Notes under the pieces: generated by a model | Told to the model about the DNA's origin: nothing | Database searches by the model: none | What the model saw: only the letters and a program-made list of their open reading frames with translations | Made by a program: the position numbers and the translations under genes | Shown here: piece after piece, positions 48,865 through 54,505 of the stretch | Layout: every line of letters starts with the position of its first letter | Numbering within the stretch: the first letter of the stretch is position 1 | Origin: Microcystaceae cyanobacterium | GTDB lineage: Bacteria; Cyanobacteriota; Cyanobacteriia; Cyanobacteriales; Microcystaceae | Direction of reading: 5' to 3' | Length of the DNA stretch: 64,000 bases | NCBI GenBank assembly: GCA_041746575.1 | Contig: JBGTGT010000011.1 | Location: forward strand, 92,660 to 156,659

Positions 48865-50010
48865 ATGAAACACAAAAAAAAAACAGCTTTAATCTATTGT
48901 GAAAATCAGTTTGGACTGATGGATGGAAAAACGGCGGCTGGATTGGTTCGACACTCTGAGATTTACACCATTGTCGGTATAATCGATAGTTCTTTAAGGG
49001 GTAAAGATGCAGGAGAAGTATTAGACAATCAAAAGAATAATATTCCGATTTTTGAAAATTTACAGGACGCGTTAGCAAATCTAGCAACCGTTCCCCATTG
49101 TTATATTTATGGAAAAGCTCCCCTAGATGCTTTTCTTTCTCCAGAAGAAAGATTTCTGATCTTAGAAGCCATGGAACAAGGAATGGATATCATTAATGGT
49201 CTTCACGAATTCTTTTCAGACGATCAAGAATTTATGCATAAAGCGGTGCAGTGTGATATTCAAATCAGAGATATTAGAAAACCTCCCAAATTAAAAGACC
49301 TTCATGTTTTTACTAATCAGATATCAAAGGTTAACGTTCCGGTTATTGCCATATTAGGAACAGATTGTGCTTGTGGCAAAATGACAACCGCCGTAGAACT
49401 TAATAAAACCTTAAATCGCTTAGGCATTAAATCTGTGTTAGTGGGGACAGGGCAAACTAGCTTAATGCAAGGGGCAAAATACGGAATATCAATGGATGCA
49501 CTCGTTTCTCAATTTGTGATTGGTGAAATAGAAAATGCCGTTGTTCAAGCGTTTGAAAATGAAAATCCCGATCTGATTTTAGTCGAAGGACAAAGTGCCG
49601 TCAGTCATCCCGCTTTTATGAGTTCTCTGGGAATTTTAAAAGGAAGTATGCCCGATGGAATTATTCTGCAACATCCGCCTGCTAGAAAATTTCGCTGTGA
49701 TTTTCCCCATTTAGTGATGCCAACAATTGAGGGTGAAATTCGACTCATTGAAGCAATTTCATCGGCTCAAGTCATCGCTATCACCTTAAGCCACGAAAAC
49801 TTAACTGACGCAGAAATCTTAGCGATTATAGACGAGTATGAAGATCATTTTCAATTACCGACGACCGATGTATTAAAATATGGATGCCAAAAACTGATTC
49901 AAGCATTAAGCCATCATTTTCTTAAGCTCAAGCCAAAAGTTACAGCCGATCATTTAGCAAAAGTTCCCCTCTTAACAATGAGACAACCACAAATAGTAGG
50001 GAAGTCATAA
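48865..50010 (+). CDS. DUF1611 family P-loop protein (DgcN/D-glutamate N-acetyltransferase-like)
   Basis: GKTAAGLVRH, IINGLHEF, GTDCACGKMTTA, GTGQT, VEGQSAVSHP. Confidence 0.88.
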   Translation: MKHKKKTALIYCENQFGLMDGKTAAGLVRHSEIYTIVGIIDSSLRGKDAGEVLDNQKNNIPIFENLQDALANLATVPHCYIYGKAPLDAFLSPEERFLILEAMEQGMDIINGLHEFFSDDQEFMHKAVQCDIQIRDIRKPPKLKDLHVFTNQISKVNVPVIAILGTDCACGKMTTAVELNKTLNRLGIKSVLVGTGQTSLMQGAKYGISMDALVSQFVIGEIENAVVQAFENENPDLILVEGQSAVSHPAFMSSLGILKGSMPDGIILQHPPARKFRCDFPHLVMPTIEGEIRLIEAISSAQVIAITLSHENLTDAEILAIIDEYEDHFQLPTTDVLKYGCQKLIQALSHHFLKLKPKVTADHLAKVPLLTMRQPQIVGKS

Positions 50011-51108
50011 GTGTTGATGCCAAGGATAGAAATATCTTTAGACAAAATACAGCATAATACTCAATTTCTCTGTCATCTTTATAAACAAAGAGGAATTTCT
50101 TTAATGGGGGTTTCTAAAGGCGTATTAGGAGATCCTTTGGTTGCTAAGGCTATGGTTCAAGGGGGGGTAAAATTTATTGCTGATTCTCGCCTCGAAAATA
50201 TCCAAAAAATGAGAAAAGCGGGAATACCGACACCGTTTGTCCTATTACGCACTGCCTTAAGTCAAGCAGAATCAATCGTTAGAAGTGCGGATATTAGCCT
50301 AAATACTGAACTTGAAACCATCAAAGAACTCTCTTATTATGCCCAAGCACAGCAGAAAACTCACCTAATTATCATTATGGTAGAGTTAGGGGATCTCCGA
50401 GAAGGAATACTGCCCAAAGATCTTTCTCAATTTGTTGCAAAAACCCTTTCCTTTCCCTTTATCAAAATTATCGGCATTGGCTGTAACTTGGCTTGTTACG
50501 GAGGAGTCAAACCCGATGAAACAAAAATGCAGGAATTATCCGCCCTAGCTGAGCGGATAGAAACGGAATTTTCGCTCAAATTAGCCCTTATTTCTGGGGG
50601 GAATTCAGCCAATCATGAATGGTACCAATCCGCAAAAACGGTGGAACGGATTAACAACCTTCGTTTAGGAGAATTAATTCTTTTAGGTCGTGAAACTATC
50701 AATCGTAAAGCGATTTCTGGCTTATATACCAACGCTTTCCAGCTAATTGCTGAAGTAATCGAGGCGAAAGAAAAGCCCTCTTTGCCTTATGGTGAAATCG
50801 GTCAGGATGCCTTTGGCGATGTTCCTCACTTTTTAGATCGAGGTATTCACCAGAGAATTATTATTGCTTTAGGTAGGCAAGATATTGGAGTATCTGGTTT
50901 AAGATTAAGTTATCATTTTACCGTGCTCGGTTCTAGTAGCGATCATTTAATTCTCCATAGCCAGCATGATCATTTAAAAGTCGGCAATGAAGTCAATTTT
51001 AACCTCAATTACGGCGGACTTCTTTCAGCGATGACTTCTCCTTTTATCAAAAAGAATTATATAACCAATACAAAGGGATTTTATGAAAACCTTATTACTT
51101 TACCCTAA
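50011..51108 (+). CDS. PLP-dependent alanine/ornithine racemase family protein
   Basis: GVSKG (PLP Lys), ADSRLENI, MVELGDLREG, ISGGNS, INNLRLGE, GSSSDHL. Confidence 0.88.
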   Translation: MLMPRIEISLDKIQHNTQFLCHLYKQRGISLMGVSKGVLGDPLVAKAMVQGGVKFIADSRLENIQKMRKAGIPTPFVLLRTALSQAESIVRSADISLNTELETIKELSYYAQAQQKTHLIIIMVELGDLREGILPKDLSQFVAKTLSFPFIKIIGIGCNLACYGGVKPDETKMQELSALAERIETEFSLKLALISGGNSANHEWYQSAKTVERINNLRLGELILLGRETINRKAISGLYTNAFQLIAEVIEAKEKPSLPYGEIGQDAFGDVPHFLDRGIHQRIIIALGRQDIGVSGLRLSYHFTVLGSSSDHLILHSQHDHLKVGNEVNFNLNYGGLLSAMTSPFIKKNYITNTKGFYENLITLP

Positions 51109-52702
51109 GTTTCCCCAGTCTTTCTGGTCTTATGACCGCTTTATGGAAATCGCCGGACTGAAAGCCGCTATTCCTCCCCTTGGTATTATTACCGTCGCCG
51201 CCCTCCTCCCCCAAGACTGGGAAATCCGATTTTATGACCGCAATGTTAATCTTGAAACCGAAGCAGATTGGGACTGGTGTGACTTAGTCATTCTCTCCGC
51301 CATGTTGGTACAGAAACCAGATTTTCAGTTTCTGATTCAAAAAGCCGTTCAGTTAGGCAAAAAAGTGGCAGTTGGTGGACCTTATCCTACTTCTGTTCCC
51401 CAAGATGCCCTAGATTGTGGGGCGCATTATCTCATTTTAGACGAAGGAGAAGTCACTATTCCCCTGTTTTTAGAAGCGATCGCTCAAGAAAAAACCACTG
51501 GCACCTTTCGTTCCCTCGAAAAACCCGATGTTACCTTTAGTCCCATCCCTCGCTTTGATCTCCTTCAGCAAAACGCTTACTTAATGATGGCGGTTCAATT
51601 CTCGCGCGGGTGTCCCTTTAATTGCGAATTTTGTGATATTATTTCCCTCTACGGACGTAAACCCCGCACCAAAGAACCCAGTCAGATTTTAGCTGAGTTA
51701 GAGACCCTTTATGATTTAGGCTGGCGTGGCTCGCTGTTTATCGTCGATGACAATTTTATTGGCAATCAGCGCAACGTCAAACGCTTTCTCAGAGAATTGA
51801 TTCCATGGATGAAGGAACATCACTATCCTTTTACCTTCATTACTGAAGCCTCTGTCAATTTGGCAGAAGATCACGAATTACTGCACCTCATGGCTGATGC
51901 TGGTTTTTATGCCGTTTTTCTGGGAATTGAAACCCCCGATCAAGATAGTCTGCACATCACCCGCAAAGTACAAAATACTCGCAACCCATTAGTAGAAGCT
52001 TGTCGCCAGATTAATGAGGCAGGGTTATTGATTTATGCGGGATTTATCCTCGGTTTTGATGGAGAACGGACAGGAGCAGGGCAAAGAATTCAAGCCTTTA
52101 TCGAAGAAACCAGTATTCCTCAGCCGATGTTAGGGATTCTCCAAGCGCTACCGAATACAGCACTCTGGACTCGCCTAAAACAAGAACAGCGTTTAGTGGA
52201 GGGAGACAGTAGTCATCTGACAGGAGATCAAAATACCCTGATGAATTTTATCCCCACGCGTCCGCTTGCCGAAATTGCGAAAGAATATGTTGAAGGCTTC
52301 TGGACACTGTATGAACCGACTCATTATCTCCGACGCTGTTTCCAGCAATGTCTCAGTCTGGGTTCGTCGTCAAGATCTCAGCAAACAATGCAATTTCCTA
52401 TCAATAAGGGATTACGATTATTGACTCAATTAATCTGGCATCAGGGGATTCGCCGACCTGAAATTCGGGTACAGTTTTGGCAACAATTATGGACTATTTT
52501 GCGAAGAAAACCTCAAGTTCTCAATCTGTATTTAGGGCTATGCGCTGCGGGAGAACATTTTTGGGAATACCGAGCTTTAGCCAGAGAACGGATTAGTCAA
52601 CAGCTAGGCTATGATCCGATGCACTTATCTTTGGATTCTGTGGCAAAAACAAGTTTTGAAGAGCAAAATACCGCCGATAGTATTCTGAATTTTAAGGCTT
52701 AA
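51083..52702 (+). CDS. Cobalamin-binding radical SAM protein (HpnP-like, DUF4070)
   Basis: YPKFPQSFWS, PPLG, GGPYPT, SRGCPFNCEFCDI, VDDNFIGN, TEAS. Confidence 0.9.
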   Translation: MKTLLLYPKFPQSFWSYDRFMEIAGLKAAIPPLGIITVAALLPQDWEIRFYDRNVNLETEADWDWCDLVILSAMLVQKPDFQFLIQKAVQLGKKVAVGGPYPTSVPQDALDCGAHYLILDEGEVTIPLFLEAIAQEKTTGTFRSLEKPDVTFSPIPRFDLLQQNAYLMMAVQFSRGCPFNCEFCDIISLYGRKPRTKEPSQILAELETLYDLGWRGSLFIVDDNFIGNQRNVKRFLRELIPWMKEHHYPFTFITEASVNLAEDHELLHLMADAGFYAVFLGIETPDQDSLHITRKVQNTRNPLVEACRQINEAGLLIYAGFILGFDGERTGAGQRIQAFIEETSIPQPMLGILQALPNTALWTRLKQEQRLVEGDSSHLTGDQNTLMNFIPTRPLAEIAKEYVEGFWTLYEPTHYLRRCFQQCLSLGSSSRSQQTMQFPINKGLRLLTQLIWHQGIRRPEIRVQFWQQLWTILRRKPQVLNLYLGLCAAGEHFWEYRALARERISQQLGYDPMHLSLDSVAKTSFEEQNTADSILNFKA

Positions 52703-52719
52703 TTTTTGTTTAAATCTTC

Positions 52720-53268
52720 CTACACTCCTACAGAATTTTCTGAAATTTGACAGGAGTGGCAATAACCACACATCGACCACCGTTTTTCTTCCAAGGGTAA
52801 CAGAGGAGACTGACAAAGGGGACAAAGGGGAAATTGGTGGCTTCTTTGACGAATAATCTCAGCCCAGCCTTGAAAAGCTTCCTCTGGCGTTGCATTACAT
52901 CTTTTTATGTCCTCAATTTCAAAAAGAGGACTGGAAGGGAACTGTTGGTTTTCTAAATTCGTTTGAGGGGGGTTTACAGTCCAATAGACTGAAGAGAAGT
53001 GAATATCATTTAGCGGCTCATCGAGAAGGCGATTTAATGGCTTAAGGATAGTATAGCGTTGTAAGGTTAAATGTTGTGCGATCGCCGCACTTTCCGTTCC
53101 TACCCAAAGAATTTGACGACGAATCCCCATCGGTCGGGTTTTAGAGGCAAATTTAGCTGGAACAACAGTTTTCCAATGGGTTACGATGGCAGAATAGCGA
53201 TGATAGTTTTGCCATGCCGGTTTACGCTGAATCTGATTTAAGAGCGTTGCAAGGGTGGTAAAAGCCAT
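52720..53268 (-). CDS. DUF721/DciA-family protein with C-terminal Zn-finger
   Basis: W..VV......TRP.....L.V..S...AQHL; CPLC...WSMCGYC. Confidence 0.8.
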   Translation of the reverse strand: MAFTTLATLLNQIQRKPAWQNYHRYSAIVTHWKTVVPAKFASKTRPMGIRRQILWVGTESAAIAQHLTLQRYTILKPLNRLLDEPLNDIHFSSVYWTVNPPQTNLENQQFPSSPLFEIEDIKRCNATPEEAFQGWAEIIRQRSHQFPLCPLCQSPLLPLEEKRWSMCGYCHSCQISENSVGV

Positions 53269-53352
53269 ACTAGGGTCAATTGCGATAGAATATAATCATT
53301 CTTATCCTTCCTTTAATATTTTAGACCTTTAATTCAATCGAGTGAACAGATC

Positions 53353-53607
53353 ATGACTCAAAGACTCAAACGATGGGAATCCCCCCGCCGTCAAGGGCGT
53401 AACGACAAAGGTAAAGGCGGCTCAGCCCGACAAAGACAACTGAAAAAACGAGAAAAACAGCTACGCAAAAAACTGAAAGACTCATTAGAAAACCAAAATA
53501 ACAACCTCTGGGAGAAGAAACTAAACTTCTCCCTCTTTTTTGGGCGTCAGCGAAAAATCAGCGACTCGATAAGCCACCTTCGGATTTTGGTAGAGGTCGT
53601 TTTCTAG
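53353..53607 (+). CDS. Small basic protein; candidate ArfA-like alternative ribosome-rescue factor
   Basis: RWESPRRQGRNDKGKGGSARQRQLKK, very Arg/Lys-rich; internal terminator before the stop. The CDS is likely real; the function is inference. Confidence 0.6.
   Translation: MTQRLKRWESPRRQGRNDKGKGGSARQRQLKKREKQLRKKLKDSLENQNNNLWEKKLNFSLFFGRQRKISDSISHLRILVEVVF
53510..53541 (+). terminator. Intrinsic terminator located inside ORF 53353-53607
   Basis: GGGAGAAG-aaactaaa-CTTCTCCC (8-bp stem) followed by TCTTTTTT. Confidence 0.75.
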
Positions 53608-53610
53608 AAA

Positions 53611-53870
53611 TCAATAGGAATAGATAACGCCATCTACCTGCTTATTATGCCAATCGGGAACAGCAGATGGGAGACTTTTGACGATTAATAGACGAGCTTG
53701 GTAATACTTGGCCAGTTTTTCAGTATTTGAGTCATTTATGACAGCAATACGCATATTTTTTTAGATCTTGAGGCTTGGGTAATTGGATAGCGATCGCCCC
53801 AGCTAATCCAACTTTAAGGGCGTTTTTTAAAGGTAAAAAAAACGTGGAAGATAATACGGTTAAAAGTTGT
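53611..53870 (-). pseudogene. Fragment of an amino-acid-binding (GluR0/SBP type 3-like) gene
   Basis: ...PKPQDLK, then a frameshift in an A run, then MRIAVINDSNTEKLAKYYQARLL.VKSLPSAV...NKQVDGVIY, resembling a GluR0-type ligand-binding lobe. Confidence 0.4.
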
Positions 53871-54059
53871 CATTTTTCTACTTATTTTTTTAGGGTGTCA
53901 TATAATTGGGATTCATTGGCAGAAATTAACGAATTGCGAAGAAGCGTCCCCTCAAATTTTTCGAGATGGCTCATCACTTTATCGGGATCGAATTTAGGCG
54001 TTGGTGAATGTGAAATGTTATGGAGTCTAGAATAAGAGTTAAAAAATTCTTGTGAAGTA

Positions 54060-54505
54060 ATGGACTGTCCTAACTGTAAATCATCACAAAAGAAGAAGAA
54101 TGGTTTTCGTCGAGGAAAACAATCATTCAGATGTAAGCCTATTTCTAGTTATTCCTTTGTCAGATTAGAGAAAGCTGGAGAAGAGGAAAACAATCATTCA
54201 GGTGTAAGCCTATTTCTAGAGCAGATCCAACAGAAGTTAAACAACTTTGTTTAAAAATGTATCTCAATGGAATGGGATTTAGAGCGATTGCCAGAGTAAC
54301 TGAGACCAACCATACCACAATGATCAATTGGCTAAAAGCGGCTGAAGAATCTTGATCTGACGACCCCCAAGAGAATAAAATACCAGAAATTACAGAAATA
54401 GATAAGCTACTCACTTTTGTTGGCCACAAAAAGAACAAACTTTGGATTTTGACAGTCGTTAATCACAAAAACAAGGGGATTTTACTGGGGAACATTGGCG
54501 ATCGC
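54060..54505 (+). mobile_element. Degraded IS1-family transposase
   Basis: MDCPNC...KKNGFRRGKQSFRCK zinc-finger start; EVKQLCLKMYLNGMGFRAIARV HTH; PEITEID..TFVGHKKNKLW. Contains an internal stop, frameshift and truncation. Confidence 0.88.
54112..54219. repeat. 37-bp direct repeat (1 mismatch) flanking a 34-bp unique insert
   Basis: GAGGAAAACAATCATTCAG(A/G)TGTAAGCCTATTTCTAG at 54112-54148 and 54183-54219. Confidence 0.9.

Follow-up and report, generated by a model that had tools for sequence, protein, structure and literature searches.

A family of small, strongly basic cyanobacterial proteins is encoded by genes in which a terminator hairpin and U tract precede the stop codon. Taking the analysis as a whole, we consider it highly probable that these genes are expressed from non-stop mRNAs and repressed by tmRNA. 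The complete proposal, i.e., that the conserved core protein is made in this way and works as a release-factor-recruiting ribosome-rescue factor, is the reading we lean towards, with modest confidence. The member described here is the ORF at 53353..53607 (+ strand) of the window, by which we mean the whole stretch of 64,000 nucleotides of Microcystaceae DNA that was analysed.

The ORF has 84 codons and runs from ATG to TAG. Residues 1-43 (53353..53481, +) form a conserved basic core with 80% mean column identity among 37 diverse cellular cores. The core holds 18 K/R against 4 D/E and has a pI of 11.9, and the basic region includes NDKGKGGSARQR. The 84 codons and the very basic N-terminus had been pointed out in an earlier reading of the bare DNA (the sequence-only reading), and both are confirmed. 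At its N-terminus the core is extended and carries the ESPR and GRN motifs. A Gly/Lys turn follows, then a predicted basic helix at about residues 24-42, and the core as a whole is probably the entire functional protein. It is followed by a polar linker of variable length without in-frame stops (53482..53509, +), rich in N, Q, K and D (linker composition N 27, Q 15, K 13 and D 9 percent). The terminator hairpin (53510..53533, +) covers codons 53-61, inside the ORF. It reads GGGAGAAG-N8-CTTCTCCC and has 8 pairs between a purine 5' arm and a pyrimidine 3' arm, with an 8-nt loop. The 66-nt fold at the hairpin has an energy of -16.6 kcal/mol (z -2.92), and 1 of 200 shuffles was equally good. At the U tract TCTTTTTT (53534..53541, +), the mRNA is predicted to end without a stop, having coded for about 63 residues. 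The tract ends at codon 63, and the stop codon lies downstream of the terminator, 63 nt further on. Scan and folding thus both recover the terminator at 53510-53541, ending near codon 63, that the sequence-only reading had proposed. The remaining read-through tail (53542..53607, +; residues 64-84 and the stop) is unconserved, and the GRAVY of residues 64-84 is +0.12, compared with -2.28 for the core.

Upstream, a TATAAT at 53291..53296 (+) is a candidate -10 element, 57 nt before the start codon, in the gap to a divergent gene; it is absent from the promoter-scan list, a scan that demands a -35 match. The divergent neighbour (52720..53268, -) encodes a DciA-family protein (Pfam PF05258, E 5e-17) and is not among the 12 largest neighbour clusters listed for the core family. 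Rfam gave no match within 52600-54300, and the ORF product matched no Pfam, NCBIfam or PHROGs family at cut-off.

At E <= 0.001, 1378 homologues of the protein were retrieved. The names listed among the best 120 of these are hypothetical protein, except for one predicted transcriptional regulator. In order to avoid selection on the tail, residues 1-43 alone were searched in 251 genomes of the phylum. The core is present, with one match each, in 74 of them, i.e., in 74/111 genomes of the window's class and in 0/140 genomes of other classes. With a broader profile, none of the 37 genomes of the class that lack the core gave an acceptable match. A marginal profile match (E 0.048) inside a 262-residue frame was not accepted as a family member, and two fragments (E 0.11 and 0.16), from a set of five core-less genomes, were not counted. 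The core is missing in all 11 genomes of one family with genomes of 1.6-2.7 Mb (f22), which by this size may be picocyanobacteria, and it is patchy within genera. Since 25 of 154 loci were missed by a regular-expression locator, the loci were placed by local alignment.

Differences from the window core fall on codon positions 1, 2 and 3 in the ratio 694/318/1294, and this pattern, together with the 80% column identity, shows that the core is selected as a protein. The invariant residues are K6, E9-S10-P11-R12, R16-N17, A25, Q29 and K32. A profile search of 1.84 billion representative sequences returned 454 matches, 389 of them below 1e-10; the 150 listed among the 454 all cover the whole core, and no bridge to another family was seen among them. 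At 50% identity, the random tails divide a single 80%-identical core into 454 clusters, and it is this fragmentation that hides the family from annotation. In the ESM Atlas, two queries (P0001 and L201) both retrieve unnamed clusters of 37, 44 and 46 residues with scores of 0.87-0.91.

A single hairpin of this kind is weak evidence, as a consensus scan finds 4 terminator-like sites per 3 kb here against 2.5 +/- 1.9 in shuffles. It is the family that lifts the terminator above chance, as it recurs inside the ORF in 70/74 homologues compared with 24/1187 background ORFs. The detector accepted a site if its stem had 6 or more pairs, 3 G-C pairs among them, its loop spanned 3-14, its energy was -7 kcal/mol or lower and 5 T stood within 8 nt; the first such site in the 400 nt past the core was taken, ignoring the position of the stop. 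Among the 74 loci selected on the core, the first terminator lies inside the ORF in 70, past the stop in 1, and was not found in 3; the U window is entirely upstream of the stop in 66. All 70 detected loci have at least 5 T in the 8 nt after the stem, which is a requirement of the detector. For the background, 1187 long ORFs were drawn at random from 2488 in the same genome and run through the same detector, and 24 of them (2.0%) have a terminator in their last 130 nt. In the 130 nt after the stop, terminators were detected in 88 of the 1187 background ORFs and in only 4/72 family members.

The exceptions among the 74 are of two kinds. L091 is cut by the end of its contig, and L099 has, by eye, a bulged hairpin inside the ORF. 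The true exceptions are L118 (698-853) and L131 (161-292), in which the stop lies 8 and 0 codons past the core and no hairpin was found. These two may have lost the regulation or may be copies of the phage type described below. L135, from the same genus as L131, retains an in-ORF terminator.

Two further samples give the same result. In GTDB genomes, 76/80 loci (the best 80 of 291, ranked on the full protein and overlapping slightly with the core-selected set) have the terminator inside the ORF. In metagenomes (the best 80 of 420, with 200 nt scanned) this holds for 64/67 distinct loci, and the remaining three end at most 28 nt from the core. The check proposed in the sequence-only reading, a collection of homologues, has therefore been run, and it finds a conserved core, divergent tails and an in-ORF hairpin in 70/74, 76/80 and 64/67 loci. 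The case that it had named as speaking against the idea, homologues with a stop before the hairpin, was not seen as a pattern in any of these sets. As far as genome sequences can tell, its suggestion of a built-in non-stop design is strongly supported by the family-wide in-ORF terminator, the conserved core and the divergent tails.

None of the 66 distinct loci has a frame-0 stop between core and hairpin, whereas 45.8 of them would be expected to be open after shuffling; this openness follows from membership in the in-ORF class, but only 1/71 detected loci falls outside that class. In frames +1 and +2, 12 and 45 of the 66 linkers contain stops. The hairpin itself is spread over the three reading frames (phase 26/17/23) and lies from -6 to 89 nt from the core. 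As phase and distance vary in this way, what is conserved is an RNA structure and not a peptide. The ORF length is 58-148 in the core-selected set, and the median length predicted for the non-stop product is 64 residues.

The hairpin is maintained with changing sequence. There are 99 distinct 5' arms among 146 loci, and cognate arms pair at -16.9 kcal/mol, compared with -11.5 kcal/mol when arms are swapped between loci. Folding z-scores below -2 are found in 84% of 73 loci after the core, versus 15% within it. No consensus structure, and hence no formal covariation, emerged from RNAalifold when 47 hairpins were aligned with MAFFT; the purine runs are out of register in this alignment.

Beyond the hairpin, nothing of the protein appears to be shared. 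Tails aligned to tails have a median score of 14 versus 13 for shuffled tails, while cores score 166; 4.8% of tail pairs score above 40, and these we take to be close kin. In-frame tails are 37% hydrophobic. The sequence-only reading had called the tail of the window ORF arbitrary and partly hydrophobic, and it was right as far as the lack of sequence conservation goes. The tails are not wholly neutral, however. In frame, they are longer than off frame, with a median of 19.5 codons versus 10 and 17 in the other frames (p 0.0013), and beyond 30 nt the effect has p 0.017 in the core-selected set and p 0.12 in both sets combined; all of these p-values overstate the effect, as related genomes are not independent. 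The longer in-frame tails could possibly reflect selection that keeps stops off heterogeneous 3' ends, or that destabilises the read-through product.

The genes surrounding the core vary. No downstream gene is conserved across the loci of the family. Of 70 loci, 35 have a convergent ORF as the longest one downstream, 18 have one on the same strand, and the other 17 have no long ORF there. An A run precedes the hairpin in 28/70 loci and is absent in 42/70; the hairpins with an A run could act in both directions.

These neighbourhoods bear on the idea that the gene simply makes an ordinary small protein, or the read-through protein at full length. Its hairpin would then terminate only weakly within a translated region, or would mainly serve a convergent gene or the upstream tRNA-Leu, or be an RNA stabilising or cleavage signal. 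The 35 convergent arrangements, the 28 A runs and the longer in-frame tails (with the caution about kinship given above) would all agree with this, and where transcription and translation are coupled, terminators can be masked by translation (PMC7858274). Yet 42 of the 70 hairpins have no A run, and the hairpin accompanies the gene through unrelated neighbourhoods. A terminator shared with another gene would not keep the linker free of stops (66/66 against 45.8 expected), the tails have no sequence in common, and cleavage at the hairpin would likewise yield a non-stop mRNA. We therefore regard this explanation as improbable.

An ORF running through a terminator is also the anatomy of a leader. 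In such an attenuator, the ribosome translating the leader ORF blocks the terminator and transcription continues into the downstream gene, as in the E. coli pyrBI leader. The same-strand downstream ORFs in 18/70 loci would fit this arrangement. It is disfavoured because the downstream genes vary, with a convergent ORF or no long ORF at all in 52/70 loci. In addition, the core is under purifying selection as a protein, and phages keep the core without an internal terminator. An attenuator is thus very improbable, even compared with the read-through explanation.

The neighbour that does recur lies upstream. A tRNA-Leu(CAA) gene is found on the same strand, 21-142 nt upstream, in 20/74 and 25/77 loci of the two sets, i.e., in 45 cellular loci. 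Examples of the linkage are L001, L083, L092, L134 and L153, and it is also seen in distant families. In 13 further loci the tRNA-Leu(CAA) lies 530-1121 nt upstream, and for some loci just 700 nt of flank were available. The core gene may be the 3' trailer of the tRNA-Leu(CAA) precursor, in which case tRNA processing would yield an mRNA that lacks a stop and has a processed 5' end.

A second tRNA gene is seen on the other side of some loci. In L101, L102, L111, L119, L120, L126, L132 and L133, a tRNA-Gln(TTG) gene follows on the same strand, 31-150 nt past the stop, and in L110 the read-through tail extends into tRNA-Gln(TTG).

Homologues of the core are also found in phages. Scans of IMG/VR gave 7, 25 and 23 loci; the set of 25 included three duplicates and one weak match, and 21 distinct loci remained after their removal. 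A 13-residue match (L194) and a weak match inside a 414-residue frame (L216) were dropped, as they are not family members. In 18/21 distinct phage homologues, the stop lies at most 6 codons from the end of the core, giving proteins of 40-47 residues, and 5 of these 18 carry a terminator after the stop. As phage copies stop right after the core, the core is a complete product and the non-stop design is a separable control. The remaining 3/21, all of one clade, retain the terminator inside a longer ORF. In this clade (L204, L205, L213, L214 and L215) the terminator lies in an ORF of 82-86 codons and close relatives stop at 43 residues; from the gene anatomy, non-stop control appears to have been kept or regained in these phages.

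A tblastn search of cultured phages with the cellular core gave no match, while a phage-type query found 8 records. The cyanophage S-SSM4 has a copy of 41 residues directly before a tRNA-Val gene, and copies of 43, 44, 47 and 52 residues are found in S-CREM1, DSL-LC02, P-SSM7 and A-HIS1, respectively. The homologues in S-SSM4, S-CREM1 and DSL-LC02 are unannotated (L299:1301-1426, L300:1501-1632 and L301:1501-1635), and the annotation of A-HIS1 ORF039 records a similarity to Acaryochloris AM1_2888. Neighbouring phage genes encode tail, baseplate, HNH, anti-repressor and 2OG-Fe(II) oxygenase proteins, and phage copies adjoin tRNA-Cys, tRNA-Thr and tRNA-Val genes. One 119-kb viral contig (IMGVR_UViG_3300003878_000001) contains two divergent copies, L190 and L193, about 7 kb apart, one behind tRNA-Cys and the other ahead of tRNA-Thr and tRNA-Leu.

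The phage copies also speak to a darker role for the protein. It could be a toxic alarm peptide that tmRNA keeps in check; once trans-translation is saturated by infection or RNA damage, the peptide would be set free and halt the cell. Tight post-translational repression would suit a toxin, as would the patchiness of the family within genera. But lytic cyanophages carry stop-ended copies, and two cellular copies are likewise free of the control, so we regard a toxin as the most remote of the explanations considered.

Known genes built in this way include arfA and brfA. The core family shares with them a conserved hairpin before the stop, a conserved N-terminus, an unconserved tail and a host that has tmRNA and SmpB. 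As predicted for the core family, ArfA (YhdL, PF03889) is made from a non-stop mRNA with an internal stem-loop, and it has a poorly conserved, partly hydrophobic tail (PMC8012679). The truncated ArfA lacks 17-18 of 72 residues, and the active BrfA has about 62 (PMC8012679). The two sequences can be aligned over an N.KGKG stretch. However, the motif lies at residues 17-22 of the core with a helix behind it and is followed by G, while in ArfA it is near the functional C-terminus and followed by S-Y. BLASTP of the core protein against E. coli ArfA gives 9/28 identities with E 8.5, and there is no match to the PF03889 profile. N.KG[KR]G is kept in 72/74 cellular cores but in only 7/21 phage cores. 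The likeness to the ArfA motif on which the sequence-only reading had drawn is thus weak. With no profile match and the motif lost in 14/21 phage cores, the family is not counted as ArfA, and if the core protein acts in rescue, it represents a new solution and not a distant ArfA.

BrfA (YqkK) of B. subtilis, which depends on RF2, is likewise small and basic, with an intrinsic terminator within the coding region, a truncated product of about 62 residues, a dispensable tail and tmRNA control (PMC6881298). It is confined to Bacillus, whereas the core family is found in cyanobacteria and cyanophages. BrfA has N-terminal helices, a beta-strand, Arg25 and a KH motif, in contrast to the predicted C-terminal helix and the lack of a conserved KH in the core. 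Searches for a match to BrfA by profiles and structures found no PDB sequence match with two profiles and 0 Foldseek hits, the latter being weak evidence for a 43-residue model. The PDB sequence searches returned 0 matches and one match with E 1.5 to an unrelated protein. ArfA and BrfA both add a beta-strand to RF2, where it augments domain 2/4. The two AlphaFold models of the core show a helix at about residues 24-42 and no strand; as the N-terminal half is of low confidence (pLDDT 56-72), the missing strand counts weakly against an adaptor of this kind. A predicted complex of RF2 (26-row alignment) and the core (37 rows) scored 0.00, which gives no usable verdict.

ArfT of Francisella has about 40 residues and is basic, with a KKGGS-like stretch and a charged helix; it has an ordinary stop codon, as the phage copies do, and lacks an internal terminator (PMC6299226, PMC6514570). 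The family searches linked the core to no such factor. The ArfT motif lies near the C-terminus, and we judged the likeness to the core by eye from the motif quoted in the paper (PMC6299226). KGKGGS of the core recalls KGKGS of ArfA and KKGGS of ArfT, for which binding in the empty mRNA channel is known or has been proposed (PMC6299226). The helical tail of SmpB enters the same channel (PMC8012679). The tails of SmpB and ArfB resemble the core in having a KGK turn followed by a basic helix, but the core lacks the SmpB barrel and the GGQ domain. An alignment of the core with the host SmpB tail has 5/16 identities (E 8.3, not significant). No GGQ peptidyl-tRNA hydrolase domain was found in the core protein, which sets it apart from ArfB (NF006718). 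Being short and basic with no GGQ of its own is a trait that it shares with rescue factors that depend on a release factor.

A small, basic, cyanobacterial protein with one helix and disorder is also described as cS24 (Ssr3189, COG5794), an abundant ribosome-associated protein (PMC13640635). Its helix lies in the first 26 residues, it is present in picocyanobacteria and algae, and the description covers no non-stop design (PMC13640635). In Stanieria, the cS24 genes are Sta7437_3204 and Sta7437_1591 (PMC13640635), while the core-family member is Sta7437_4311. Going by that description, the core family is not cS24.

The comparison leaves room for the same non-stop, tmRNA-repressed expression of a protein that is no release-factor adaptor and binds ribosomes or RNA in some other way. 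It might, for instance, be a brake on initiation, an aid to hibernation or ribosome splitting, or a partner in RNA decay, which would reduce the load once trans-translation is saturated and with which phages would steer host translation. All the regulatory evidence would fit equally well, and what is invariant in the core is ESPR, RN, A, Q and K, not an ArfA-like motif. No strand is predicted, the occurrence is independent of ArfB (see below), and cS24 shows that other small, basic, ribosome-associated proteins exist in cyanobacteria (PMC13640635). Against it, the conserved non-stop genes described in the papers covered, arfA and brfA, both encode release-factor adaptors (PMC6881298, PMC8012679), and a brake would be hard to square with an unregulated phage copy. 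We hold this reading to be somewhat unlikely. In favour of the rescue factor, the main arguments of our analysis are precedent, size, charge and the tRNA linkage.

The host genome contains tmRNA, SmpB, RF1, RF2 and a gene of the RqcH family. In this genome (99.8% complete) no ArfA was matched and no ArfB above cut-off. A survey of 15,259 genomes found arfA in none of the 162 genomes of the cyanobacterial group, arfB in only 90 and an RqcH-family gene in 161/162 (PMC11633108, Table 1). As RqcH is present in the host and in 161/162 genomes of the group, the need for another rescue factor is not evident. A Synechocystis ssrA null is cited as viable (PMC5222879). The core family is present in 34/51 genomes of the class with ArfB and in 40/60 without (Fisher p 1.0), and 20/111 have neither. 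That the core stands in for ArfB is therefore rejected, as the two co-occur at random.

One member of the family has left a trace in the literature. In Nostoc PCC 7120, the homologue is tabulated as a candidate small RNA on the reverse strand (start 179863, end 179662; 201 nt, 8 reads, 42 homologues in 89 genomes), with the comment 'putative peptide according to RNAcode' (PMC4734099). The start was measured by dRNA-seq and the end is a predicted terminator (PMC4734099). By eye, the unit has an ATG 19 nt past its start, and the frame stays open as far as the hairpin. In the parts of the results covered, that paper does not take up the entry (PMC4734099). In the literature searched, in which subscription journals and supplements are thinly covered, no paper was found on the function of the core family or its non-stop design. 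The sections covered of PMC4235212, PMC6514570 and PMC11633108 do not name the family, those of PMC12873609 make no mention of rescue or non-stop mRNA, and motif searches in the supplements of PMC8155712 gave no match. The remark in the sequence-only reading that such a factor was undescribed in cyanobacteria therefore stands with regard to function and design, although the Nostoc locus itself had already been listed (PMC4734099). What is new here are the phage homologues that end right after the core and the tRNA-Leu(CAA) linkage of 45 cellular copies.

We suggest the following mechanism for the rescue factor. RNA polymerase would halt at the hairpin and U tract found inside the ORF; ends of this form act as intrinsic terminators in Synechococcus elongatus (PMC12642595). 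A ribosome would then reach the end of the mRNA after about 63 codons and stall. By analogy with arfA and brfA, tmRNA-SmpB would tag the chain, leading to its degradation. When trans-translation is missing or saturated, untagged protein would accumulate, and the gene would in this way sense the load of stalled ribosomes. The core protein would then relieve that load, most likely in the manner of ArfA, BrfA and ArfT. The basic turn and helix of the core could fill the empty mRNA channel, and the N-terminal ESPR-GRN segment might aid RF2 or RF1 in hydrolysing the peptidyl-tRNA. The phage copies, which end in a normal stop, would evade the control by tmRNA.

A more extended scenario can be speculated, and we put it forward tentatively, at clearly less than even odds. 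The core family would be a fourth, independently evolved, release-factor-recruiting rescue factor of oxygenic cyanobacteria, located ancestrally in the 3' trailer of tRNA-Leu(CAA). Phages (S-SSM4, S-CREM1, P-SSM7, A-HIS1 and others) would have captured it and freed it from control by a stop after the core, thereby keeping ribosomes recycling during infection. Possibly, the phage copies counter host defences that cut RNA. The capture would extend to phages of small-genome hosts, where the searches gave no copy.

Further small rescue factors that are invisible to sequence search are expected according to a review (PMC8012679). The core family provides a concrete candidate for such a factor, found as a single copy in two thirds of the genomes sampled from the class. 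Its phage copies are a natural experiment that defines the minimal protein, and they suggest an intervention in ribosome quality control by viruses that infect major primary producers. Should the protein be no release-factor adaptor, the family would still represent a conserved cyanobacterial gene apparently built to respond to the capacity for trans-translation.

Two other regions near the ORF were noted in the window. Three long ORFs of 381, 365 and 539 aa, overlapping or adjacent, occupy 48865-52702 (+); by their appearance they may encode a P-loop protein, a racemase-like protein and a B12-binding radical SAM protein. At 54060-54254 (+), a short ORF with a CPxC...C pattern has the look of a broken insertion-sequence gene.
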